The notes under the pieces were generated by a model. It was not told the DNA's origin and made no database searches. It worked only from the letters and a program-made list of their open reading frames with translations. A program made the translations under genes and the position numbers. A DNA stretch of 27,682 bases from an uncultured Anaerolineales bacterium (lineage in GTDB: Bacteria; Chloroflexota; Anaerolineae; B4-G1): positions 1 through 27,682 of the forward strand of contig CAZANJ010000002.1 in NCBI GenBank assembly GCA_964486415.1, given 5' to 3'. Position 1 is the stretch's first letter; each line of letters begins with the position of its first letter. Below, piece after piece: positions 3,835 to 16,876 of this stretch.

Positions 3835-4686
3835 TCAGGGCATCGATGGCAGTGCTGTGAGCAAGGCGTCATCGAAGTAAACGGCGTGGTAGATCTGTGC
3901 GAACTGCGTTTCCGCGAAGATACAGACCGTTGCTTGGCCTGATTGTCCTATTGTGACCTCTGGAGAGAGGAGCATCACCACCCCATCTTCCTGGTTGATG
4001 ATCTGTTCTTGGCCCCATTGCGCTTCATCACATCCCGCGTTACCTTGAGGGTCTATCCCGGCCTTTACGATGTATCCCCCCTCCGTCTCCTTGACGAATC
4101 CCCTGGCGTTTACCTGGAACTGTAGGACGGTGTTGGGCTCCGCCTGCACTGTTTGGAATACCCAAGCTTGCAATTTCACCCAGGGCGTGGTGTCGATCTT
4201 GAGCGTCGATCCGTTGATCTGGCGTTGAGGATCGGTGGCGGCCTGGAAGCGAGGGGCGGCGTAGGAAGTTTCGGGGTCGAATCCTTCACCCGGCTTCCAA
4301 TTTACGAACCCACCCGTCTGCCAACCGGGAATACTGTTTCTACTGAGGCGGTCGAAGGTTGGATTTTCGAGGGCGATGGGGGCTGGCGTGGGAGGAAGTG
4401 TCACGGTCATACGTTCAACGGGCGTGGCCCAGGAGGTGGGTAGTTCGGTCGGTGTGCTGGTCGGGCTGGGCGTGAGTGTGGCGTATGGCGTGGAGCTTGG
4501 TGTAGGCGTCCAGGTGGGCGGCTCAGTGATGGTCGGTGTAAGTGTAATCGTCGGTGTCTCGGTGGGGGGTAGGCTAGGAGATGCCGGTTGTGTCAATGAA
4601 CTACGCACGGCGTTCACCATCGCGCCTAGGATAATAATATCGGCCAATGCCAGAATTGCTACAATTATCCATTTTCTCCGGGACAT
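3835..4686 (-). CDS. membrane-anchored protein with a Pro/Thr-rich linker and a C-terminal beta-rich (carbohydrate-binding-like) domain
   Basis: Basic N-terminus plus one hydrophobic helix, then PT repeats, then an LENPTFD..PGW-type domain; SD GAGGAG upstream. Function is inferred. Confidence 0.75.
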   Translation of the reverse strand: MSRRKWIIVAILALADIIILGAMVNAVRSSLTQPASPSLPPTETPTITLTPTITEPPTWTPTPSSTPYATLTPSPTSTPTELPTSWATPVERMTVTLPPTPAPIALENPTFDRLSRNSIPGWQTGGFVNWKPGEGFDPETSYAAPRFQAATDPQRQINGSTLKIDTTPWVKLQAWVFQTVQAEPNTVLQFQVNARGFVKETEGGYIVKAGIDPQGNAGCDEAQWGQEQIINQEDGVVMLLSPEVTIGQSGQATVCIFAETQFAQIYHAVYFDDALLTALPSMP

Positions 4687-4882: not shown

Positions 4883-5239
4883 TTGCTGAATCAGTTTACT
4901 TTCGTCGGTGTTTTTCTTGTTATTGCGCTTGCTTTTGGTGTTGCCCCGATTGCTATTGCCTTCTTCTTACGCCCCAAGAAACCCAATTCTCGTAAAGCGT
5001 CTACCTATGAGTGCGGTCTAGAACCCTACGGTGATGCTTGGGTTCAATTCAAAGCACAGTACTATATTTTCGGCCTGGCCTTTGTCATCTTTGATGTCGA
5101 GGCCGTTTTGTTGTTGCCATGGGCTGTGGCATATCACGCGTTGGGGCTTTATGCCGTGATCGAGGCTATGATTTTCATCCTCATTTTGCTTGGCGCTCTG
5201 GTTTATGTCTGGCGCAAGGGCGCGCTTGAGTGGATGTAA
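4883..5239 (+). CDS. nuoA: complex I subunit A (TTG start)
   Basis: YECG loop, FVIFDVE, WRKGALEW; SD GGAGG. Confidence 0.96.
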   Translation: MLNQFTFVGVFLVIALAFGVAPIAIAFFLRPKKPNSRKASTYECGLEPYGDAWVQFKAQYYIFGLAFVIFDVEAVLLLPWAVAYHALGLYAVIEAMIFILILLGALVYVWRKGALEWM

Positions 5240-5313
5240 TTTATCGCGTGGCGTGATGCAACTGAGGATAGGGCGATTAGATTAGCGATCGACGCTGGGA
5301 TGGAGCTTTTTCT

Positions 5314-6501
5314 ATGGAATTTATCAAGGACTTGATCCTCAATATCGGTGGCTGGTTGCAAGGGCTATTGATGGGCACAGGGTTGGCTCCCTCTTGGGTG
5401 CAGGTGATTATGCACCTCATCGGTGGAGTTGCGTTGGCCATTGTCCCATTGGTAGCAGTGATTTTCCTCATCTGGGCAGCCCGTAAGATTGTGGGGCGAA
5501 TGCAGGATCGGCTCGGCCCCAATAACTCCGGTCCTTACCCCGGACCTTACGCTATTTTCCAGACTTTTGCTGATGCCGTCAAGATGCTGACAAAGGAAGA
5601 TGTTGTCCCCACCGCGGCCGATCGGGGAGTTTTCAACATTGCTCCAGTGGTGATCTTGGCTTCCGCCGTGCTGGTTTGGGCTGTCATTCCCTTGGGCAAA
5701 GGGCTCATCGGCGCCGATCTAAACATCGGCGTTTTTTACATTCTCTCCATTGGCTCATTGAGCCTGATCGCGCTGATGATGGCGGGATTGGGGTCCAATA
5801 ACAAGTATGCTTTAGTGGGCGCATTGCGTGCGATAGCCAGTCTGATCAGTTATGAGGTACCGCAGGTCATCGCTGTTATGACGGTGGTCATGGTCTCCGG
5901 CTCCTTCTCTATGCAACAGATCGTCGAAGCGCAGCAAGTGCCTTTTATATTCGTGATGCCCCTGACCGCTTTTCTATTCTTCGTCGGTTCCCTGGCCGAG
6001 GTAGGCCGGCAGCCCTACGACCTGACGGAGGCGGATTCGGAGATTGTGGCCGGTTACTTCGTCGAGTACAGCGGGATGAAGTTTGGGCAGTTCTATCTAT
6101 CGGAGTTTATGAATAACTTTGCCCTTGCCGTCATCACCGCGACACTCTTCCTCGGCGGGTGGCGTGGGCCATTTGTGGAAAGTGTGCCTGTTCTGGGATC
6201 GCTTTGGCTTCTGCTCAAGGCATTGCTCGTCTTCTTCGTTCTCCTGTGGTTGTGGGGTACGATGCCCCGCTTGCGCATTGACCACATGTTGAGCTTCAAT
6301 TGGAAGTTTTTGGTTCCCTTGGCGCTGGCGAACTTGTGTGTAGTGGCCTTAGTAGGCAAAATAGTGCCAATGAGCGCTCCTCCTTTAGTGCGTGCGGGAG
6401 CGTTTTTGGGGTCCAATATCCTGTTGGTATTGATTGTGTTGGTAGTGCTGGCGATTGCCGGTCGCCGAGCTCGGCGGCAGCAGCTAGAGGTTAGTGGCTA
6501 G
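5314..6501 (+). CDS. nuoH: complex I subunit H
   Basis: QDRLGPN, ADAVKMLTKE, ISYEV, RQPYDLTEADSEIVAGYFVEYSG, PRLRIDH. Confidence 0.96.
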   Translation: MEFIKDLILNIGGWLQGLLMGTGLAPSWVQVIMHLIGGVALAIVPLVAVIFLIWAARKIVGRMQDRLGPNNSGPYPGPYAIFQTFADAVKMLTKEDVVPTAADRGVFNIAPVVILASAVLVWAVIPLGKGLIGADLNIGVFYILSIGSLSLIALMMAGLGSNNKYALVGALRAIASLISYEVPQVIAVMTVVMVSGSFSMQQIVEAQQVPFIFVMPLTAFLFFVGSLAEVGRQPYDLTEADSEIVAGYFVEYSGMKFGQFYLSEFMNNFALAVITATLFLGGWRGPFVESVPVLGSLWLLLKALLVFFVLLWLWGTMPRLRIDHMLSFNWKFLVPLALANLCVVALVGKIVPMSAPPLVRAGAFLGSNILLVLIVLVVLAIAGRRARRQQLEVSG

Positions 6502-6511
6502 GGATTAGACC

Positions 6512-7015
6512 ATGCAAATTACACTTCAACAAATCTTGTTCATTATCTTAGGCGCGATCACGTTGGGGGCAGCCTTGATGGTGGTGACGCGTCGTAATGT
6601 TTTCCACGCTGCACTCTTTCTCATCTTATCCTTCTTCGGTGTGGCAGGGCTTTATGTATTGCTAGAGGCCCCTTTTCTCGCCGCCGTACAGCTGTTCATT
6701 TACATCGGCGGTATCTCGATCCTGATTATCTTCGCCATTATGCTCACGCAGAACATGATGGATCCCAACTTGCCGGGAGCCAATCGCCAGTGGTGGGCTG
6801 CGGCCTTGGTGGCCGTGGCTATTTGCGGCATTCTGGGGTGGGTGGTGTTGAACCGTAATTGGGGGACGGCTAGCGCAGAGGTGCCTCAAAACACCATCAC
6901 GATTTTGGGTACGGCTCTGATGGACCCGGAGGGATTGTTGTTGCCTTTTGAGGTGGCCTCGGTCCTTCTCTTAGTCGCTCTCGTCGGTGCTGTGACTATT
7001 GCAAGGGAGCAATGA
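6512..7015 (+). CDS. nuoJ: complex I subunit J
   Basis: QLFIYIGGISILIIFAIML and LLPFEVASVLLLVAL. Confidence 0.95.
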   Translation: MQITLQQILFIILGAITLGAALMVVTRRNVFHAALFLILSFFGVAGLYVLLEAPFLAAVQLFIYIGGISILIIFAIMLTQNMMDPNLPGANRQWWAAALVAVAICGILGWVVLNRNWGTASAEVPQNTITILGTALMDPEGLLLPFEVASVLLLVALVGAVTIAREQ

Positions 7016-7018
7016 TTT

Positions 7019-7327
7019 ATGGTTCCTTTAGCTTGGTATCTTATTCTGGCAGCAGCTTTGTTCTGCATAGGATTGTATGGCGTTCTCTCGCGGCGTAATG
7101 CTGTGGCGATTTTGATGGGCGTCGAGCTGATGCTGAACGCTGTCAACATCAATCTGGTCGCCTTTTGGCGCCATCTGGAGCCGGGAGCGGCGACAGGGCA
7201 AGCCTTCGCACTTTTCGTCTACGTCGTCGCGGCTGCCGAGGCAGCCGTGGGCTTGGCGCTCATAATAGCCGTGTGGCGCACCCGTGACACTGTTGTCCTC
7301 GAAGACATCGATTTGCTCAAAGGTTAA
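7019..7327 (+). CDS. nuoK: complex I subunit K
   Basis: [10 protein letters not shown] and [11 protein letters not shown]; both conserved Glu residues are present. Confidence 0.96.
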
Positions 7328-7341
7328 ACACCGAGGTGACT

Positions 7342-9753
7342 ATGGAGATTCTCAACCTTGCTTGGCTGATACCCCTCTTCCCATTTCTTGCATTTGTTTC
7401 AATAGCGATCTTCGCCCACCGAAGTCGCCGATTGAGCCACCAGTTGACCATTGGTGGTATCGCCTTTGCTTTTCTGATCGCGCAGATTGTCTTTTGGCGG
7501 GCGGTGACTTTGCCGGTGGGGGGCGGCGAGCATGCCTTCGAGTCATCGGCCATCCACTGGCTGGTTGCGGGTGAAGAACGGCTCACACTTGGCGTCTACG
7601 TCGATCCAGCCACGGCGGTGATGCTCTTTATGGTGCCCTTGGTCTGTATGATGATCTTCATCTACAGCGTCGGCTACATGAACTTCGGCACACCGGAGGT
7701 CGATCCCCGTTACAGCCGTTTCTTCTGTTACCTCTCCCTCTTTGCCACCGGCATGTTGGGAATGGTGGTTTTTAATAACCTGCTGGCCTTCTTCATCTTC
7801 TGGGAGATTATGGGGACTTGTTCTTATCTGTTGATCGGCTTCTGGTATGATAAAAGTTATCCCGATCCCGATAAAATCACCCCTAAGGAGGCCGGGCTGA
7901 AGGCCTTCATCGTCACCAAGATCGGCGATTTGTTCTTTATGCTTGGCTTGGCCTTGCTCTACGCCGAGGTGGGATCGCTGGCCTACCGGGACATCTTCGC
8001 CGCCGAGACGCTGGAGCATCTGGCCCATGCTAACTTCCTGGGAACTCAATGGTCGCTGGCCTCCGTGATCGCCCTGCTCTTGTTTGGCGGCACTGTCGGT
8101 AAGAGCGCACAGTTCCCGCTCCACGTCTGGCTGCCCGACGCGATGGAGGGGCCCACACCTGTCTCCGCCCTCATCCACGCCGCAACGATGGTTTCGGCCG
8201 GCGTCTTCCTCGTGGTGCGCTCCTTCCCGATTTTCGCTGCGGTCGAGGGCACCCATATGACGATTGTGGCGACCATTGGGGCTTTCACGGCCATCTTTTC
8301 GTCCGTCATCGCCATCGCGCAAGATGATATAAAGGGAGTGCTGGCCTTCTCTACTATCAGTCAGTTGGGATATATGGTTGCTGCGTTGGGTATCGGCGCT
8401 TATGTGGCTGGAGCCTTCCACCTCATCACTCACGCTTTCTTCAAGGCGCTCTTGTTCCTCAGTTCCGGCTCGGTGATCCACGGTATGGAACATGGACATC
8501 ATCACGTCCACGAGCATGCGGAGCACCACAATGATGATAATGAGAATCATGAGGAGCATGATGAGCACGGCGAGCACGAGGAAGAGGAGTGGTTCAACCC
8601 CAATGACATGAAGAATATGGGCGGCCTGGCAAAACGTATGCCGCGTACCGCTTTGCCATTTCTCGCCGGTGGGTTGGCTCTCTCCGGTTTTCCCCTGTTC
8701 ACTGCCGGTTTCTGGTCGAAGGATGAGATACTGGCCCAGGCTTACGAGCTATCCCCCGCCGTCTTCTGGACGCTGGGTATGGCCGCTGTGCTGACCGCTT
8801 TCTACACCGCGCGTCAACTCTGCTTGACCTTCCTGGGGGAGCCGCGCACCGAGGCCGCCAAGCACGCGCCGGAGAGTGTGCCATCTATGACGACCCCCCT
8901 GGCTATCCTGGCTGTCTTCGCCATTATTCTGGGCTGGGCTGGTATTCCGGAGCATTTCCCCGTCATCGGTGGGATTATCCCCAACTGGGTCCATCACTTC
9001 GTCGGATCGACAATTGCGGGGGGGCACGCTGAGCATGCAACGAAAGTAGCCGGGCATCTCTCGGAGGCCGCAGAGGCAGGCTTTGTATGGCAGCCATTGG
9101 TGATGAGCATCCTCTTCGCGCTGGGCGGGTTGACGTTGGGGTGGTTGGTTTATGGCCGCAAGCCGATGGTAGCCGGTGAGATGGATCGGGTGGAAGCAGC
9201 AATGCGCAAAGTGGGCCTGGGATGGCTGTACGAAGCTATGCGCAACCAATTCTACTTCGATGAAATCTACCAGACGATAGTTGTGCGCCCCTCCATCTGG
9301 TTGGCGGACGTTTTTGACACGTTCGACTATGGCCGCGAAGAGGGCAAGCATGGCGTGGTAGATGGCATAGTGACCTTGGCCGGGAAGATAGGAAGGGCTG
9401 TGTCCGACATATCCGGATGGCTTGATGCCAAAATTGTGGATGGATTGGTCAACCTGGTCGGGGGCTTAGGAAAGGCCATATCCTGGGTCAGTGGTTGGCT
9501 CGACGTCAACATCGTGGATGGGTTGGTCAATCTGGCGGGCAGCGCTGGAGCCCTGCTATCCAATGGGCTCAACAGCTTCGATCTCACTGTGGTGGACGGC
9601 GCCGTCAACGGCGTCGCCGATGTCGTCATGGGCGGTGGGAAGGCAATCCGCCCCATTCAGACCGGTAAAGTTCAAAACTATCTGCTGCTGGCATCCCTGA
9701 TGGTGCTGGCATTAATCTTGACATTCTTTGTGATATTGTTCTTGCAAATCTAG
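7342..9753 (+). CDS. nuoL: complex I subunit L with a His/acidic insertion and a greatly extended lateral helix (alternative GTG start at 7336)
   Basis: FWEIMG, GKSAQFPLHVWLPDAMEGPTPVSALIHAATMV, HAFFKALLFL, FWSKDEI, QTGKVQNY. Confidence 0.96.
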   Translation: MEILNLAWLIPLFPFLAFVSIAIFAHRSRRLSHQLTIGGIAFAFLIAQIVFWRAVTLPVGGGEHAFESSAIHWLVAGEERLTLGVYVDPATAVMLFMVPLVCMMIFIYSVGYMNFGTPEVDPRYSRFFCYLSLFATGMLGMVVFNNLLAFFIFWEIMGTCSYLLIGFWYDKSYPDPDKITPKEAGLKAFIVTKIGDLFFMLGLALLYAEVGSLAYRDIFAAETLEHLAHANFLGTQWSLASVIALLLFGGTVGKSAQFPLHVWLPDAMEGPTPVSALIHAATMVSAGVFLVVRSFPIFAAVEGTHMTIVATIGAFTAIFSSVIAIAQDDIKGVLAFSTISQLGYMVAALGIGAYVAGAFHLITHAFFKALLFLSSGSVIHGMEHGHHHVHEHAEHHNDDNENHEEHDEHGEHEEEEWFNPNDMKNMGGLAKRMPRTALPFLAGGLALSGFPLFTAGFWSKDEILAQAYELSPAVFWTLGMAAVLTAFYTARQLCLTFLGEPRTEAAKHAPESVPSMTTPLAILAVFAIILGWAGIPEHFPVIGGIIPNWVHHFVGSTIAGGHAEHATKVAGHLSEAAEAGFVWQPLVMSILFALGGLTLGWLVYGRKPMVAGEMDRVEAAMRKVGLGWLYEAMRNQFYFDEIYQTIVVRPSIWLADVFDTFDYGREEGKHGVVDGIVTLAGKIGRAVSDISGWLDAKIVDGLVNLVGGLGKAISWVSGWLDVNIVDGLVNLAGSAGALLSNGLNSFDLTVVDGAVNGVADVVMGGGKAIRPIQTGKVQNYLLLASLMVLALILTFFVILFLQI

Positions 9754-9838
9754 CAAGTAGGCAAGTGGGCAAGTGGGCTAGTAGGCAAGTGAACAAGTAG
9801 CATAGATAAGTCGGACACTTGCAGACCTGCAAACTTGC
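9753..9838. repeat. octamer array: 6 direct units (GCAAGTRG-like) followed by 3 inverted units (..ACTTGC)
   Basis: gcaagtag gcaagtgg gcaagtgg gctagtag gcaagtga acaagtag ... acacttgc agacctgc aaacttgc. Confidence 0.8.
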
Positions 9839-9863
9839 AGACTCAAAAGAAGGAGAGCATACT

Positions 9864-11390
9864 ATGTTTCCAATTCTAAGCGTTACCCTGTTTGCCCCGC
9901 TGGTGGGCGCCCTACTCATTTTGGTCATCCCGCGTGAGGATGTTAAGACAATCCGGCGGATGGGGACCGCGTTTGCTTTCCTGACGCTCATCCTCACAAC
10001 TATCATCTGGGTGAGTGTGGCGCAGTCAGGGGCCGGCGTTATGCAGTTTGAGGAGAACTATCCCTGGATCAAGGCATTCAATGTGCGGTTTCACCTCGGG
10101 GTGGATGGTCTCAGTGCACCTTTGCTCTTCTTGACTGCCCTGTTGACCACTCTTGTGACGTTCTACTCATCTTATACCATTGACGACCGGGTCAAGGAAT
10201 ACTATTTCTTGTTCCTGTTGCTTGAGATGGGTATGAGCGGTGTATTCCTTTCCCTGGATCTGGTGCTGTTCTACGTCTTCTGGGAGATCGGTTTGGTGCC
10301 GATGTTCTTGCTTATCGGTGTGTGGGGCGGAAAGCGCCGCCTGTACGCGGCCATCAAGTTCTTCCTCTACACGCTCGTGGGCAGCGTGGCGATGTTGCTG
10401 GCCATCATCGGCGTTTATTTCCAAACCGGCACCTTCGACATATTGGAAGCGGCTGCGGCACAACCCTTCGCTGGCAATTTCACTTGGGCTAGTGTAGCTT
10501 TTTGGGCCTTCTTCGTCGCCTTTGCCATCAAGGTGCCAGCTTTCCCCTTCCACACTTGGTTGCCAGACGCTCATACAGAGGCGCCCACTTCGGGTAGTGT
10601 CATTCTGGCGGGCGTCTTGCTGAAGTTGGGGGCTTATGGTTTGATGCGTATCGCGCTGCCATTCTTCCCAGCACAGTTCAAGTACTTTGTCGTGAACGTG
10701 CCAATTGTTCCCATTATGGCGGTGATGAGTATTGCCTACGGAGCGATGGTCTGTATGGCGCAGTGGGACCTTAAACGGCTGGTTGCTTACTCCTCGGTGG
10801 CTCATATGGGCTACGTCACACTGGGGCTATGCGCGGCAGCGGCTGGCATCGGGATGCTGGATGATCCGGCGAACCTCAGCGCGGCGGCCTCGGGCCTCAG
10901 CGGCGCGGCATTCCAGATGTTCGCGCACGGCATCATCACGGGAGGGATGTTTTTCCTGGTCGGTATGATCTACGATCGGGCCCACACGCGCGACCTGAAG
11001 GTCTTTGGCGGACTCGGTAAGCAGATTCCTTATTATTACGGGATTGTGATGGTTACCGGGTTTGCGTCCCTGGGGCTTCCCGGCTTGGCTGGCTTCTGGA
11101 GTGAGTTCTTCGTCTTCCGGGGCACAATCCGCTTTATCCCCTTGGCCGCTTTCATCGGCGTGATCGGAGTAGTCTTCACCGCTGCCTATATCCTGTGGAA
11201 AGTTGTACAGCACCTCTTCTTGGGGGATCTGGACAAGGAGAAGTGGGGCAAGCTGACCGACATGACCTGGTGGGAAAAGGTAACAATGTGGCCTTTGGTG
11301 ATCATCATGGTTTTCCTCGGTATCTATCCCGCTCCCCTGCTGGATATGTTCAACGCTGCGCTCACAGGGGTTTTGCGGGCGCTGCCGTAA
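9864..11390 (+). CDS. nuoM: complex I subunit M (start set at ATG 9864 after SD AAGGAG)
   Basis: LGVDGLS, FWEIGLVPM, AIKVPAFPFHTWLPDAHTEAP, LLKLGAYG, DLKRLVAYSSVAHMG, FWSEF. Confidence 0.96.
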   Translation: MFPILSVTLFAPLVGALLILVIPREDVKTIRRMGTAFAFLTLILTTIIWVSVAQSGAGVMQFEENYPWIKAFNVRFHLGVDGLSAPLLFLTALLTTLVTFYSSYTIDDRVKEYYFLFLLLEMGMSGVFLSLDLVLFYVFWEIGLVPMFLLIGVWGGKRRLYAAIKFFLYTLVGSVAMLLAIIGVYFQTGTFDILEAAAAQPFAGNFTWASVAFWAFFVAFAIKVPAFPFHTWLPDAHTEAPTSGSVILAGVLLKLGAYGLMRIALPFFPAQFKYFVVNVPIVPIMAVMSIAYGAMVCMAQWDLKRLVAYSSVAHMGYVTLGLCAAAAGIGMLDDPANLSAAASGLSGAAFQMFAHGIITGGMFFLVGMIYDRAHTRDLKVFGGLGKQIPYYYGIVMVTGFASLGLPGLAGFWSEFFVFRGTIRFIPLAAFIGVIGVVFTAAYILWKVVQHLFLGDLDKEKWGKLTDMTWWEKVTMWPLVIIMVFLGIYPAPLLDMFNAALTGVLRALP

Positions 11391-11467
11391 CTAAAACGTG
11401 AAAACGTAAAGCGTAGGTGTGACTCAAAACATCACATTCGCGCTTTATGTATAGTAGGAGGACAACG

Positions 11468-12943
11468 TTGTTCGGAGAACCGACACTCACGTTAGGCCAG
11501 ACGCTATGGCTGCTCTCGCCGGAACTGGTGCTTCTCTTGACAGGCTTCCTCATTATGGGACTGGATGCTATCCATCCGCAAAAAGAGGAAAAGCGCTGGG
11601 TGCCTTATGTTGCCTTGGGAGGGCTAGCCGTTGCCCTGATCGCATCTATCACCCTTTGGGGTTGTAACACCAGGGTGCTCTTCATGTTTTCCTGTGACCC
11701 CTTCTCGTTGGTCGTTAATATGGTGGCTATGTTGGCTGTGGGGCTTGTGATACTCACATCCGACCTGTACATTCGAGTGCATAGTCGGTATCAGGGTGAG
11801 TTTTACGCTCTCCTGCTCTTCTCAGCTCTAGCCATCTGCCTGTTGGGTGGGGCGACTAACTTGATTATGGTCTTCTTGGCTTTTGATTTCCTGAGCATCA
11901 CGTCATATATTCTCACCGGCTACTTGCGTGAGGATCAAAAGTCAACAGAGGCTGCGATCAAGTATTTTCTCTACGGCGCAGCTCTCTCCGCAATAATGCT
12001 TTATGGAATGTCCTGGTTCTATGGGCTGACCGGCTCCACAGACCTGAGCGGTATTGCAATGGTTCTCATGGAAGGGGAGCGTGTACTGCGTCCAATCATC
12101 TTGCCAGCCTTGATCTTTATCGCCGCTGGCTTCGCCTTCAAAATCGCCGCTGTGCCATTTCACCAATGGGCTCCTGATGCTTATGAAGGTGCCCCGACTC
12201 CGGTAACGGCTTTTCTCTCTGTCGGGCCCAAGATCGGTGGCTTCGCTGTCATCCTACGGGTGCTTTTAACCGCCTTGCCTGGTGATCTGGTGAACCTGGC
12301 GATGGATTGGCGGGCACTGCTGATGGCGGTCTCTATGCTCACGATGACGGTCGGCAATCTGGTAGCGCTTTGGCAGAAGAACATCAAACGCCTGCTGGCT
12401 TACTCCAGCATCGCGCAGGCCGGTTACATCCTTATCGGCGTGGTGGCAGCCTCTCCTCGGGGAGCGACGGCGGTTTTGCTCTACTTGGCGGCTTATGTGC
12501 TGACCAACTTGGGCGTTTTCGCCGCTATCATCGCTTTCTCCAACCAGGTCGGGTCCGATGACATAGACGATTACGCGGGACTGAGCAAGCGGGCTCCTGG
12601 GCTGGCCTTGGTGATGATTGTCTGTCTGCTCTCGTTAGGAGGCCTCCCACCGACGGCCGGCTTCATCGGCAAGCTGTGGCTCTTCTCCGCGGCGATCGAG
12701 GATGGGTTAATCTGGCTCGCTGTGGTCGGCGTGATCAACAACGTCATCTCTCTATCCTACTACTGGAAGGTAATCCGCGCGATGTACCTCACCCCTGCGC
12801 AGAACGGGGAACCGCTGTCTACCTCGTCCGCGCTGGCTGTTGCGCTGGGGGTGTCTGTGGTGGGCGTTCTGGTCGTGGGAGTCTTCCCTGGCCCGCTTCT
12901 GGCACTGCTCCAGGCAGCAGCGCTGACCTTTTTCGGCGGGTGA
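11468..12943 (+). CDS. nuoN: complex I subunit N (TTG start after SD AGGAGG)
   Basis: EAAIKYFL, FKIAAVPFHQWAPDAYEGAPTP, NIKRLLAYSSIAQAGY, GFIGKL. Confidence 0.95.
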   Translation: MFGEPTLTLGQTLWLLSPELVLLLTGFLIMGLDAIHPQKEEKRWVPYVALGGLAVALIASITLWGCNTRVLFMFSCDPFSLVVNMVAMLAVGLVILTSDLYIRVHSRYQGEFYALLLFSALAICLLGGATNLIMVFLAFDFLSITSYILTGYLREDQKSTEAAIKYFLYGAALSAIMLYGMSWFYGLTGSTDLSGIAMVLMEGERVLRPIILPALIFIAAGFAFKIAAVPFHQWAPDAYEGAPTPVTAFLSVGPKIGGFAVILRVLLTALPGDLVNLAMDWRALLMAVSMLTMTVGNLVALWQKNIKRLLAYSSIAQAGYILIGVVAASPRGATAVLLYLAAYVLTNLGVFAAIIAFSNQVGSDDIDDYAGLSKRAPGLALVMIVCLLSLGGLPPTAGFIGKLWLFSAAIEDGLIWLAVVGVINNVISLSYYWKVIRAMYLTPAQNGEPLSTSSALAVALGVSVVGVLVVGVFPGPLLALLQAAALTFFGG

Positions 12944-12967
12944 CTCGTCATGGGCTCAGTCGAACGA

Positions 12968-12995
12968 TTGTCTTCTGAGGGGATTGTGTTATAAT
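12968..12995 (+). promoter_or_regulatory. internal sigma70 promoter in front of the Fo genes
   Basis: TTGTCT-16 nt-TATAAT with a TGTG extended -10 element. Confidence 0.6.
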
Positions 12996-13005
12996 GTTTC
13001 CCGCT

Positions 13006-13503
13006 ATGGATACCGGAAATAAACAAGGGAACGAACTACAGGCCGTCATCCTCCCCTCTTTGGGGCTGGGTATTCAGATCGCTGGTGTGGTGGTAGTGGC
13101 GGTGCTGGGCAGCCTGTTCCTGGGGCTGTGGATTGACCGCCGACTGGGGAGCACTCCCTGGGCCACGCTGCTTTTGTTGGGCCTGGGTACGCTGGTGGCC
13201 ATGATCAGCTGCTACCGCGCGATGGCCCCGGTGATCGCACATCTGGCAGCCGGTCAGGAGGTCGAGTGGGGAGAATCCCTGCGCACCCTGGCTTTCGTCG
13301 CTCAGACGGAGCTGGTGGTCACCACTCCGCTGCTGGTCGGTCTCTTGCTGGGTCTGTGGGTGGACGTTCGATTGGATACTAGTCCATGGGTGACCTTGGC
13401 TCTGACGGTTTTGGGGGCTGTGGCGGGGTTGGTGGGCGCATGGCGCTTGCATTCTGCATTTCTGAAACGAACGGCTAAAGGTGATCAAGAGGAGAATCTG
13501 TAA
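13006..13503 (+). CDS. AtpZ/ATPase gene-1-like membrane protein with two tandem domains (alternative start 12994)
   Basis: Two copies of the G.W.D....(T/S).PW hairpin motif, GLWIDRRLGSTPW and GLWVDVRLDTSPW; first gene of the atp cluster. Confidence 0.75.
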   Translation: MDTGNKQGNELQAVILPSLGLGIQIAGVVVVAVLGSLFLGLWIDRRLGSTPWATLLLLGLGTLVAMISCYRAMAPVIAHLAAGQEVEWGESLRTLAFVAQTELVVTTPLLVGLLLGLWVDVRLDTSPWVTLALTVLGAVAGLVGAWRLHSAFLKRTAKGDQEENL

Positions 13504-14324
13504 TGGAACTTGTGCGCGAGTTGCCCCACATCTCAATGGCTGCTGAGACGCTCTTTCACATCGGTCCTTTGCCCGTCACCAATTCCCTTTTTACTACGTG
13601 GATTTGCATGTTGCTCCTCATTGTTCTCTCATGGTTGTTCTCCAAGAGTATGAAGCTTGTTCCCACTCCCTTGCAGAACCTGATCGAGACGGCCATTGAG
13701 ATGTTTTACGACGGCGTAGCCAAAGCGAGGGCCAGCGAGCATGCTGAACTTTTTCTTCCCCTTGCTGGCACCCTTTTCTTCTTCATCCTCCTCGCCAACT
13801 GGATGGGTTTGCTGCCGTTCTTTGGATCTGTTGGATTCATAATGGAGCACCATGGTGAAGAGATGTTCGTTCCTTTGTTGCGCCCGGCCAATGCTGACCT
13901 GAACACCACGCTTGCTCTGGCACTCTTCTCAGTGATCGCCACCCAGATCTACGGGATCAAGGTGCAAGGCTTCTTCGGCTACGCCAACCGATTTATTAGA
14001 GTGGACAGATTCGTGGAGTTCTTCAAGCGACGGCGCGACCCTATGTTGCTTATGAATGGCGTAATCGATCTCTTCATCGGGGCGTTGGAGATGCTTGACG
14101 AGCTGACGAAGCTTCTCTCCTTCTCCTTCCGTCTGTTCGGCAATATCTTCGCCGGTGAGGTGTTGCTGATCGTGATTTCTATGCTGCTTCCCTACGTCGC
14201 ACCGTTGCCTTTTATGGCACTGGAGCTTTTCGTCGGTTACATTCAGGCTCTTATTTTTGCAAGTCTGACGCTGGTCTTCATGAAGCAAGCAACAGCTGCC
14301 CATGGTCACGACGAAGGGCACTGA
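13503..14324 (+). CDS. atpB: ATP synthase Fo subunit a
   Basis: LLRPANADLNTT, SFSFRLFGNIFAGE with the essential Arg, ELFVGYIQALIF. Confidence 0.96.
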   Translation: MELVRELPHISMAAETLFHIGPLPVTNSLFTTWICMLLLIVLSWLFSKSMKLVPTPLQNLIETAIEMFYDGVAKARASEHAELFLPLAGTLFFFILLANWMGLLPFFGSVGFIMEHHGEEMFVPLLRPANADLNTTLALALFSVIATQIYGIKVQGFFGYANRFIRVDRFVEFFKRRRDPMLLMNGVIDLFIGALEMLDELTKLLSFSFRLFGNIFAGEVLLIVISMLLPYVAPLPFMALELFVGYIQALIFASLTLVFMKQATAAHGHDEGH

Positions 14325-14450
14325 ACGCTCTAAATCGAAAAAAGGACGTAATGCGTAAGAACCTGAACGTTAGTGGATCTATCGTAAGGTAAGAATAGAT
14401 GAGAATCCGAAAGTTAGTGAATTTGAATCGTAACAAGGAGGAAAAACAAA

Positions 14451-14669
14451 ATGGATAAGAATCTGATAGCAGCGTTGACTATCGTTCTGGGGGCTATTAC
14501 GCCGGCTGCGATGATTGGCCGCTTCTCGACCGAGGCGATGCGATCGCTGGGGCGCAATCCAGAGTCTGGCGCTCCGATCAGCGCCAATCTGATCCTGGCG
14601 TTGGCCCTGAGCGAGGCGATTGCCATCTATTCCTTGGTGGTCGCTCTGGCCATCAAGTTCGTGGAGTAA
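14451..14669 (+). CDS. atpE: ATP synthase Fo subunit c
   Basis: GRNPE loop and the ion-binding Glu in LSEAIAIY; strong SD AAGGAGG. Confidence 0.95.
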   Translation: MDKNLIAALTIVLGAITPAAMIGRFSTEAMRSLGRNPESGAPISANLILALALSEAIAIYSLVVALAIKFVE

Positions 14670-14685
14670 GATAAGGAGGCTGGCT

Positions 14686-15201
14686 TTGGAAGCCCTAGGG
14701 ATTAACCTATATGTTCTGATCGCCCAGGTCATCAACCTTGCCATTCTGTTCCTCGTGCTCCGTTCTTTGCTCTTCAAGGGTTTTCTGAAGAAGATGGAAG
14801 AGCGCAAGCAGAAGATCCAGCAGGGCCTAGAGGAGGCCGAGCGCGCCCAAGAAAAGGCGACGCGAGCCGAGGCGATCTACCAGGAGCGCATGGAGCAGAT
14901 TGAGCGGGAGCGGGAAGCCCTCATTGCCGAGGCAAGGGAAGAGGCCGAGCGGCTGCGGGCAGAGATGGTGGCGCAGGCGCGAGAGGATGCCCGTGAAGAG
15001 GCGCGCCGCATCATCGCGCAGGAACGGGAAGAGTTCGAGGCCGAGCGCCAGCAGGCTATCGCCGATATGCACAGCCAGATGGTCAGCCTGGTTATGACTG
15101 CCACCCGCAAGGTGGTCGAGGAGGGCATAGACGAGCAGGTGCAACACCGGCTGATTGATCGCTTCCTGGACGAGACGGGCGCGCTGGGGAGAATCCAATG
15201 A
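14686..15201 (+). CDS. atpF: ATP synthase Fo subunit b (TTG start after SD AGGAGG)
   Basis: EALGINL..LIAQVINL TM helix followed by a long E/A/R coiled coil. Confidence 0.92.
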   Translation: MEALGINLYVLIAQVINLAILFLVLRSLLFKGFLKKMEERKQKIQQGLEEAERAQEKATRAEAIYQERMEQIEREREALIAEAREEAERLRAEMVAQAREDAREEARRIIAQEREEFEAERQQAIADMHSQMVSLVMTATRKVVEEGIDEQVQHRLIDRFLDETGALGRIQ

Positions 15202-15701
15202 ATAGTAACAGCAATCCTGCCGAGGCCTGGGAAGGTGACCTGAAAACAATCGCGGAGCGGCTGCAGCGTCGAAATCTGATATCGCCGGAGCAAGCCACGA
15301 CCTTGGAAGCGCTGACCAGTGAGTTTGAGAGACTTTCCAAGTACGAGCCCGGTATGGCGATGCCGCTGGTAGCCACGATATTCTGGGCTGTCGAGTTCGA
15401 GCGGCTGTCACAGCAGCAGGCACAGGCCGCCGGGATGGTGGCGTGGGTGCGCAGCGCGGTTCCACTCACTGGGGAAGAGCGCGAACAGCTCAGACGCCGT
15501 CTACGAGAACATTTCGGTCAAGATTTTGTCCTGCGCGTGGAGGTTGACCCGTCACTCATTGGCGGCCTGGTGGTTCGAGCCAAAGACCGGGTCTTCGACA
15601 GCAGCGTTGCTGGCAGGTTGGACGCCCTCGATGAACGCCTGAGAACCGCTGTTGAAGAACAGATATCACTTGCTCAGGAACTCCAAGAGACAGATGAATA
15701 A
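15198..15701 (+). CDS. atpH: ATP synthase delta-like protein (canonical C-terminal domain, unrecognised N-terminal domain)
   Basis: VRSAVPL..L...L...VDPSLIGGLVVR..D.V.DSSV.GRL. Confidence 0.85.
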   Translation: MNSNSNPAEAWEGDLKTIAERLQRRNLISPEQATTLEALTSEFERLSKYEPGMAMPLVATIFWAVEFERLSQQQAQAAGMVAWVRSAVPLTGEEREQLRRRLREHFGQDFVLRVEVDPSLIGGLVVRAKDRVFDSSVAGRLDALDERLRTAVEEQISLAQELQETDE

Positions 15702-16314: not shown

Positions 16315-16539
16315 ATGACTACTCGTGAAGTCATATTAAATATGCCCGAGGGGCTGTACAGTCAGCTTGAAGCGGCAGCGACTCAGATGCAGCGTGATAC
16401 CAACTCGGTTATCTTGGATGCTCTTTCTGCCTACGTTCCTCCTCTTACGCCCGATTTGAACGCTGAGTTAGCGGCCTGGGACACTCTCAGCGACGAGGCC
16501 CTATGGGACTTCGAAAGCGATCTGAAGACTTCAAGCTGA
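16315..16539 (+). CDS. putative type II antitoxin (RHH-like N-terminus, acidic C-terminus)
   Basis: 74 aa, SD GGAGG, TGATG overlap with a PemK-like gene; ELAAWD..SDEALW tail. Confidence 0.7.
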   Translation: MTTREVILNMPEGLYSQLEAAATQMQRDTNSVILDALSAYVPPLTPDLNAELAAWDTLSDEALWDFESDLKTSS

Positions 16540-16876
16540 TGCACCAGGGTGACGTTTATCTCGTGCAACTGCCCGTGGTCGATGGTCGGGAACAAGCCGG
16601 TAGCCGACCGACTATCATCATTCAGGATCCGGTGACCGGCGGGCCGCCCCCACTGTCTTAATCGTTCCTCTGACCTCCCAGATGGCGGCCTCCAGATTCC
16701 CCGGCACCCTGGTCATTTAACCTGATGACCAGAACAGCTTAGTGTCCAAATCGGTGGCGCTTGTCTTTCAGACTCGTGCCATCGATCGGCGACGGCTGGG
16801 GGCAAGGTTGGGCTCCATCAAGCCTCGACAATTGGAGAAAATCCTTCAGTTGCTCGATCAACTCCTTGGCAGGTAG
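16539..16876 (+). pseudogene. PemK/MazF-family toxin pseudogene
   Basis: MHQGDVYLVQLP..DGREQAGSRPTIIIQD, then a frameshift near 16640-16650, then PTVLIVPLTS..FPGTLVI*(TAA 16718-16720)PD..SVALVFQTRAIDRRRL..LGSI..LDQLLGR*. Confidence 0.85.

Follow-up and report, generated by a model that had tools for sequence, protein, structure and literature searches.

The 27,682-nucleotide (nt) stretch analysed here, hereafter the window, comprises positions 1 to 27,682 of contig CAZANJ010000002.1 (assembly GCA_964486415.1) of an uncultured Anaerolineales bacterium of the Chloroflexota. It carries, in this order, dnaG, rpoD, nuoA-H-J-K-L-M-N, an atpI-like gene, atpB (a), atpE (c), atpF (b), atpH (delta), murE and housekeeping genes. 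Two clusters limited to membrane sectors lie side by side at 4883-15701, namely nuoA-H-J-K-L-M-N for the arm of respiratory complex I and atpI-a-c-b-delta for the ATP synthase, the latter lacking alpha, gamma, beta and epsilon and being followed by murE; neither nuoB, C, D, I, E, F and G nor the F1 genes occur among the open reading frames (ORFs) of the window. The feature of interest is the lateral helix (HL) of NuoL, which in complex I leaves transmembrane helix 15 (TM15), runs along the N-side of the membrane arm and ends in TM16, within the arm's proximal portion. In the window NuoL this element holds an array of 26-amino-acid (aa) modules, although the operon encodes a single NuoM.

The domains, operon position, fold match and channel residues of the product together fit NuoL. 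Its Pfam scores are 5.9e-13 for PF00662 and 3.7e-71 for PF00361, its model matches solved NuoL/NdhF/ND5 chains with target-normalised TM-scores of 0.72-0.88 (Foldseek), and residues E157, K256, H362, H366, K370, K462 and D463, which we take to be the channel Glu of TM5, Lys of TM7, His of TM8, Lys of TM11 and Lys-Asp of TM12, are kept in 95-107 of 107 relatives. Both the 14-TM core fold and these residues are those of canonical NuoL/Nqo12/ND5/NdhF. The canonical HL, as seen in E. coli (3RKO), T. thermophilus (4HE8), P. denitrificans (8QBY) and T. elongatus (6HUM), likewise consists of TM15, an amphipathic helix and TM16, and shares with the window protein an FDxxY module and a D-x-x-V-V-D-G-x-V-N .. 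Q-x-G-x-x-x-x-Y module. MrpA (6Z16, 7QRU) likewise combines a lateral helix and an antiporter-like core that is homologous, but its matches are far weaker (E = 5e-43 versus 1e-113 for NdhF); an MrpA identity was rejected, as the neighbours are nuoA/H/J/K/M/N rather than mrpB-G and the C-terminus stops at TM16, leaving no MrpB-like domain. Apart from the HL, an insert of ~30 aa that is rich in His, Glu and Asp (HGHHHVHEHAEHHNDDNENHEEHDEHGEHEEEE) lies at aa ~388-422 (8497-8601), where the loop of T. elongatus NdhF has 9 aa. Its EHGHHHxHxH stretch is present in the clade consensus, AlphaFold2 confidence there is low, and the loop may bind metal or sense pH.

Table 1. Coordinates of the complex I genes and of the elements of the NuoL lateral helix in the window.
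Feature	Position	Strand	Evidence or remarks
nuoA, nuoH, nuoJ, nuoK (remaining membrane arm)	4883..7327	+	Pfam Oxidored_q4, NADHdh, Oxidored_q3, Oxidored_q2
nuoL	7342..9753	+	Pfam Proton_antipo_N and Proton_antipo_M; flanked by nuoK and nuoM
TM15, distal anchor of HL, aa 585-607	9088..9156	+	AlphaFold2 helix, predicted local distance difference test (pLDDT) score >95; helix 10-31 of fragment model
Canonical first HL part with FDEIY module, aa 618-668	9187..9339	+	AlphaFold2 helices 618-625, 629-636, 638-665
Extra HL unit 1, aa 669-694, EGKHGVVDGIVTLAGKIGRAVSDISG	9340..9417	+	Register and identities; D676 kept in 100/106 relatives
Extra HL unit 2, aa 695-720, WLDAKIVDGLVNLVGGLGKAISWVSG	9418..9495	+	12/26 identical to unit 1, 13/26 to unit 3
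Extra HL unit 3, aa 721-746, WLDVNIVDGLVNLAGSAGALLSNGLN	9496..9573	+	D723 and D728 kept in 94 and 95 of ~98 relatives with unit 3
Canonical last HL module (unit 4), aa 747-782, SFDLTVVDGAVNG..RPIQTGKVQNY	9574..9681	+	
TM16, proximal anchor, aa 779-804	9670..9747	+	AlphaFold2 helix; helix 203-229 of fragment model, pLDDT >90
nuoM, sole copy in window, M1 type	9864..11390	+	Pfam Proton_antipo_M; 508 aa in public gene calls
nuoN, 491 aa as called, ORF opening at 11447	11468..12943	+	Pfam, gene call

The segment from FDEIY to QTGKVQNY (nt 9256-9681, aa 641-782) is 142 aa long, as against ~57 aa in canonical chains, and contains four in-register modules of 26 aa (residues are counted from the GTG at 7336, giving an ORF of 805 aa; public copies start at the ATG at 7342, giving 803 aa). 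The VDG motif stands at aa 675, 701, 727 and 753, with Asp codons starting at 9361, 9439, 9517 and 9595, so that the period is exactly 26 aa. An earlier note on this DNA had given the same coordinates, length, peptides and codon positions, all of which are correct, and had spoken of four exact 26-aa repeats; the exactness holds for the period but not for the sequence, as units 1-3 share only 9-13 of 26 residues (35-50%) and unit 4 shares 5-7 of 26 with them, while the DNA identity between units is 40-56%, and 41-56% among units 1-3. The periodicity nevertheless greatly exceeds chance: an offset of 26 gives 31/78 identities, whereas shuffling 20,000 times gave 7.9 +/- 2.6 and never more than 19, and neighbouring offsets give 3-12. 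The modules conform to the consensus W-x-D-x-x-[IV]-V-D-G-L-V-N-L-x-G-R-x-G-x-x-L-S.

The two ends of the array are recognizably canonical. The first HL part aligns with Paracoccus NuoL (YFDEIYE..) and T. elongatus NdhF (YFDELYE..), and a lineage-specific insert of 6-7 aa follows within the early HL at ~aa 665-672. Unit 4 aligns with VDYNVVDGVVN..LQNGRAQFY of T. elongatus NdhF and DGAVIDGTINGVA..VQSGYLFHY of Paracoccus NuoL, and its residues D749, D754, Q775, G777 and Y782 are near-invariant among relatives. When aa 669-746 are deleted in silico, the C-terminus aligns end to end with 8qby_L 590-695 and 6hum_F 569-651 with a residual gap of 6-7 aa, which bears out the expectation that removing three units and 7 aa restores a segment close to canonical length (142 - 78 - 7 = 57 aa). 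Structure comparison found the extended HL in no solved chain. Together these alignments and the shared register show that three of the four modules duplicate the canonical HL module, and the low identity between units shows that these in-register duplications are old.

Comparison with the closest relative, whose NuoL is 96% identical, indicates that the array is under purifying selection. The extra units differ from it by 10 nonsynonymous and 13 synonymous changes, a ratio of nonsynonymous to synonymous rates (dN/dS) of 0.23, in agreement with the view that old duplications have been kept by selection. The canonical parts of the HL segment show 1 nonsynonymous and 12 synonymous changes and the remainder of NuoL a dN/dS of 0.037; the extra units differ from these at Fisher p = 0.03 and 0.001, respectively. 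Similarly, among 11 sequences with three extra units the mean pairwise identity is 49-59% for the extra units versus 62-66% for the canonical HL and TM15/TM16. These contrasts show that the extra units are selected, yet less tightly than the canonical modules.

To survey unit number, the length of the segment from FDxxY to the final Y was scored in 224 distinct C-termini of relatives. It fell into classes with one extra unit (+1, 83-85 aa, n=106), two (+2, 109-117 aa, n=69), three (+3, 127-142 aa, n=39) and four (+4, 150-161 aa, n=6), with four sequences between classes (79, 90, 101 and 106 aa); in 169 of the 224 the length minus 57 leaves a remainder of 0-2 on division by 26. A series of units among relatives, which the earlier note had thought worth looking for, therefore exists and runs from +1 to +4. 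The 142-aa segment is intact in full-length relatives at 96% and 89% identity, and five fragments that are 69-73% identical retain the 26-26-26 spacing. Unit number shifts about 26 times on a neighbour-joining tree built from the NuoL core (~75 scored tips). Two proteins, P0162 and that of locus L087 (1461-3944), each have three near-identical HL units of 26 or 27 aa, which are recent duplications, so that the array is still growing in some lineages. In a 50%-identity library of 1.84 billion proteins the scorable matches were mostly +1, with two or more extra units in 9 of 73; judged from these sequences, arrays of +2 or more look largely restricted to an Anaerolineae/Caldilineae clade of Chloroflexota. 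A different arrangement was seen at locus L091, where the nuo operon order is ..J-K-[491-aa M-like]-L-[483 aa], with the M-like gene preceding a nuoL of 632 aa that has a canonical HL of 58; small, unrelated genes for DUF433, DUF5615 and Inhibitor_I42 proteins lie between its nuoE and nuoF.

Insertions of this kind have a known context. According to two papers that cite Chadwick et al. 2018 (PMC9040806, PMC7117926), the HL of NuoL in 2M complexes, which have one extra NuoM, contains a 26-aa insertion proposed to span the fourth pump subunit, in line with the earlier note. The Chloroflexi 2M operons read nuoL-M1-M2-N with nuoBCDI elsewhere (PMC7117926), and the same paper counts Anaerolinea thermophila as 2M. 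The window agrees with these systems in the length and position of the insertion and in operon layout (nuoA-H-J-K-L-M..N, nuoBCDI elsewhere), and relatives of the window hold an orthologous M2 in the same synteny. It differs in having three tandem insertions, in register, instead of one and no second nuoM in the cluster, and its relatives range from +1 to +4 irrespective of M2. The NuoL proteins of Complex_I_1 and Complex_I_2 of 'Ca. Manganitrophaceae' resemble that of the window in having an HL insertion in an operon without a matching pump gene, and the authors leave open whether extra subunits are accommodated (PMC9040806). These organisms belong to the Nitrospirota, however, and a single insertion is reported there, with neither a tandem array nor a copy-number series described in the text consulted. 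Neither HL arrays with several insertions nor complexes with three or more NuoM came up in our literature search, whose coverage was partial. The array is real and conserved and extends the known 2M-type HL insertion to several units, a version that has apparently not been described before.

Unit number was set against pump genes in the genomes of 61 species whose L..N cluster is complete. A single nuoM is present in 59 of them, whatever the HL class: 34 genomes with +1, 19 with +2, five with +3 and one with +4. Only two have M1 and M2, one with +1 (L034) and one with +2 (L021), and their M2 proteins are orthologous (55% identity). Seven further 2M operons were located via M2, with +1 (L092, L094, L095), +2 (L089, L090, L093) and +4 (L087), so that among nine such operons overall four have +1, four +2 and one +4, and units can outnumber extra M genes even there. 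In the window the Proton_antipo_M ORFs are nuoL, nuoM and nuoN only, which upholds the earlier count of one nuoM. This NuoM shares 64% identity with the M1 of the L021 operon but 38-40% with its M2, and the synteny K-L-M1-[M2]-N-atpI-a-c-b-delta..murE is common to the window (without M2) and to L021 and L093-L095 (with M2). Given this shared synteny and the M1-type NuoM, the lineage of the window, which descends from the Chloroflexi 2M clade, appears to have lost M2 cleanly, its HL now being at +3; the nuoM-nuoN spacer of 56-77 nt is too short for an M2 remnant.

Gene content across these genomes thus shows that unit number does not track nuoM gene number in this clade, which refutes, for the clade, a strict correspondence of one unit to each extra pump encoded. 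The room for three extra antiporters that the earlier note read from the array is a matter of geometry only. In 2M operons, too, units outnumber extra M genes, and this lineage lost M2 while its HL grew. Long helices are, moreover, common in operons that encode a single NuoM, a finding that the same note had named as one that would count against its proposal; at the level of gene content, therefore, an arm with four NuoM is not the best-supported reading.

We tentatively propose, with somewhat less than even confidence, that the array is a strap of variable copy number without extra pumps and that the arm is still L-M-N (L-M1-M2-N where M2 is encoded). In its favour are the nuoM counts, a unit number that changes often and has recently jumped by several units at once, and the looser constraint on the extra units; since unit number does not follow pump genes, the arm most likely retains its three antiporter-like subunits. 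We infer both the absence of an extra module and the way in which the surplus length is accommodated. In-register 78-nt duplications of NuoL's own docking module built the array, with gains and losses continuing in the lineage. They lengthen an amphipathic strap on the cytoplasmic face, between TM15 of NuoL and TM16 at the proximal end of the arm, both ends remaining canonical. The surplus 117 A might be absorbed on the membrane surface, either by kinks at Gly-rich hinges or by continuation over NuoK/J/A/H, and the array would then act as a stabilising strap of adjustable length rather than as a counter of antiporter modules. Energetics point in the same direction. With textbook potentials, a forward pump moving 7-8 H+/2e- from NADH to menaquinone (~0.49 eV) works only at a proton-motive force (pmf) of ~70 mV or less, and this low permitted pmf favours a surplus strap over extra pumps.

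Several observations weigh against this proposal. Despite the frequent changes in unit number, none of the 224 distinct C-termini has the canonical length of ~57 aa, and a purely surplus unit should sometimes disappear. The Asp pairs D697/D702, D723/D728 and D749/D754 are kept in ~95% or more of the sequences with the given unit, and every unit retains the L-V-N-L-x-G-R-x-G pattern; this conservation of the Asp pair and of the Gly pattern suggests a specific contact rather than a passive spacer. In E. coli, moreover, an HL insertion of 6-7 aa between L and M abolished most pumping (PMC3274701), which implies that strap length is not generally free. For the predicted structure, AlphaFold2 modelled NuoL as a monomer. 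In the full-length model (107 sequences, mean pLDDT 85.4) a single helix spans aa 674-775 at a pLDDT of 43-62, and in a model of the C-terminal fragment (116 sequences) helices span 674-708 and 712-775 at 65-87, the sole break being at 709-711 (GGL, unit 2). Foldseek with the fragment model returned no significant match and no compact fold, a result compatible with an extended shape but uninformative. The array is therefore predicted, weakly and at modest confidence, to be a nearly continuous helix; the folding back that had been named as contrary to a long lateral helix is not predicted, though only at that same modest confidence. Every 26-aa unit is amphipathic along its full length (hydrophobic moment 0.35-0.47), and a straight HL of ~160 aa (~240 A) would be longer than a three-module arm. 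As 26 residues correspond to 7.2 ideal turns, the hydrophobic faces would be in register only at ~3.71 residues per turn; the spectrum peaks at 96 degrees.

The same features suit the foremost alternative, namely that the HL acts as a ruler in which each extra module docks one more copy of NuoM (M1) made from the single gene, giving L-M-M-M-M-N in the window, with HL length setting the H+/e- gear; we regard this as rather unlikely. The 26-aa quantum (~39 A as a helix) equals the insertion tied to the extra NuoM in 2M complexes (PMC9040806, PMC7117926). Even in the canonical HL, about three modules of this kind can be read, to which three subunits correspond. A homomeric ruler would be expected to show what is seen here, a single nuoM with variable unit number, and could also account for the Asp pair and Gly pattern of every unit, for the continuous amphipathic helix that is modestly predicted and for an HL never shorter than +1 among relatives, even those without M2. 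Against it stand the relaxed constraint on the extra units relative to the canonical modules and the sudden multi-unit expansions of L087 and P0162, which would shift stoichiometry by 2 or more per step. Furthermore, 7-8 H+/2e- is out of range for forward NADH:menaquinone transfer at normal pmf and fits only a ferredoxin donor, low pmf or reverse operation, and we know of no complex I, Mrp or relative that repeats one antiporter-like subunit in a row. In its general form, where a single nuoM supplies two to five adjacent NuoM for four to seven antiporter-like modules and 5-8 H+ per 2 e-, this alternative appears doubtful. If it were true, simple 78-nt duplications and deletions in nuoL would alter the gearing from one species to another, comparable to the effect of c-ring size in ATP synthases, and the enzymes would suit ferredoxin-driven, low-pmf or reverse electron transport in mat-dwelling Anaerolineae.

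Antiporter-like subunits with genes elsewhere in the genome, such as an orphan M2, a subunit of another nuo operon or a protein like MrpD, are improbable occupants of the extra positions. Cyanobacterial NDH-1 does use dispersed NdhD/NdhF paralogues. The nuo genes can also be dispersed in this class, as in CP070818.1, a complete genome, the M1-M2-N cluster is separate from nuoL and nuoBCDI lie apart in this clade (PMC7117926), and a supply from elsewhere is suggested for Manganitrophaceae NuoL with insertions lacking a matching gene (PMC9040806). However, all ten M2 genes whose surroundings were read directly follow M1 and none is an orphan, whereas orphans should dominate such a sample if each of the 59 single-M genomes had one. 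No further antiporter-like ORF occurs within 10 kb at any of 80 loci or in the window, and +3 or +4 would require three or four extra genes.

Little probability likewise attaches to the idea that the surplus helix reaches another partner, be it the Fo sector encoded by the adjacent genes, a second complex I in a dimer or row, or another respiratory complex; even jointly, this and the preceding explanation amount to a small likelihood. It draws on the gene order, as in the window atpI-a-c-b-delta, unaccompanied by F1 genes, come directly after the nuo cluster and nuo-atp adjacency recurs in 19 of 56 related loci (among L004-L035 and L093-L095, distant 2M operons included). Gene adjacency is no proof of physical contact, however, and it is absent in the closest relative, which is also +3, as well as next to the +3 or +4 HLs of L003, L019, L022 and L026; the +1 Caldilineae lack it too. 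The suggestion of Fo as a partner hence finds no direct support, and we know of no precedent for contact of HL with Fo or any other partner. That the repeats stem from an assembly artefact or a decaying gene is hardly conceivable, given at least ten independent contigs, an intact frame, the dN/dS of 0.23 and an array kept across dozens of species.

At present, finding the 26-aa HL insertion in a genome is taken as a marker that one more proton-pumping subunit is present, and HL module arrays from +1 to +4 occur in dozens of Anaerolineae and Caldilineae species that encode one NuoM (or two). Consequently, either the marker is unreliable and a strap far longer than the arm is tolerated, or a single gene is reused and a ruler helix sets stoichiometry. 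Either outcome bears on the function of the lateral helix and on the evolution of H+/e- ratios. Cultured Caldilineae such as Litorilinea (L076) and Caldilinea hold the +1 single-M configuration, which makes the alternatives directly testable.

Identical copies of the locus are present on at least ten independent contigs in ENA, JGI and Logan assemblies of microbial-mat metagenomes (e.g. JGI 3300012009, ENA ERZ922772), and the nuoL locus is also found in sequencing runs X1-X3 with a word share of 0.97-1.00; it was not found in the RNA runs searched. The closest genome is the uncultured Anaerolineales metagenome-assembled genome GCA_964509655.1, the source of the 96% identical NuoL. In many Caldilineae-type loci (L043, L051-L053, L057-L060, L062, L064, L067, L069-L072, L076-L079, L082) the opposite strand carries a second nuoA just upstream of the nuoA-H-J-K-L-M-N cluster. 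At L071 it heads minus-strand ORFs of 123, 180, 623 and 657 aa, which could be separate nuoB/nuoCD genes.

The nuoL-nuoM spacer (9753-9843) contains about six tandem octamers GCAAGTRG followed by three copies of ACTTGCAG that are able to pair with them. Its RNA fold has a free energy of -32 kcal/mol (z = -1.84), the element is retained in the 96% relative (L001 12409-12500), and these repeats could be an mRNA processing or stability element. After them comes the strong Shine-Dalgarno site of nuoM (AAGGAG), which offers no discrimination, as the sites of nuoA, nuoN and atpE are strong too. Elsewhere in the window, a 283-aa ORF at 3835-4686 on the minus strand, with a hydrophobic N-terminal segment, a long Pro/Thr-rich linker and no Pfam match, is kept between rpoD and nuoA in close relatives. 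A 52-aa ORF between the atp cluster and murE (~16500-16660) has a weak PemK-toxin match and is probably a toxin remnant. Finally, the heptamer TCGCCAT is repeated six times at 164-205, its last copy reaching the start codon of dnaG.

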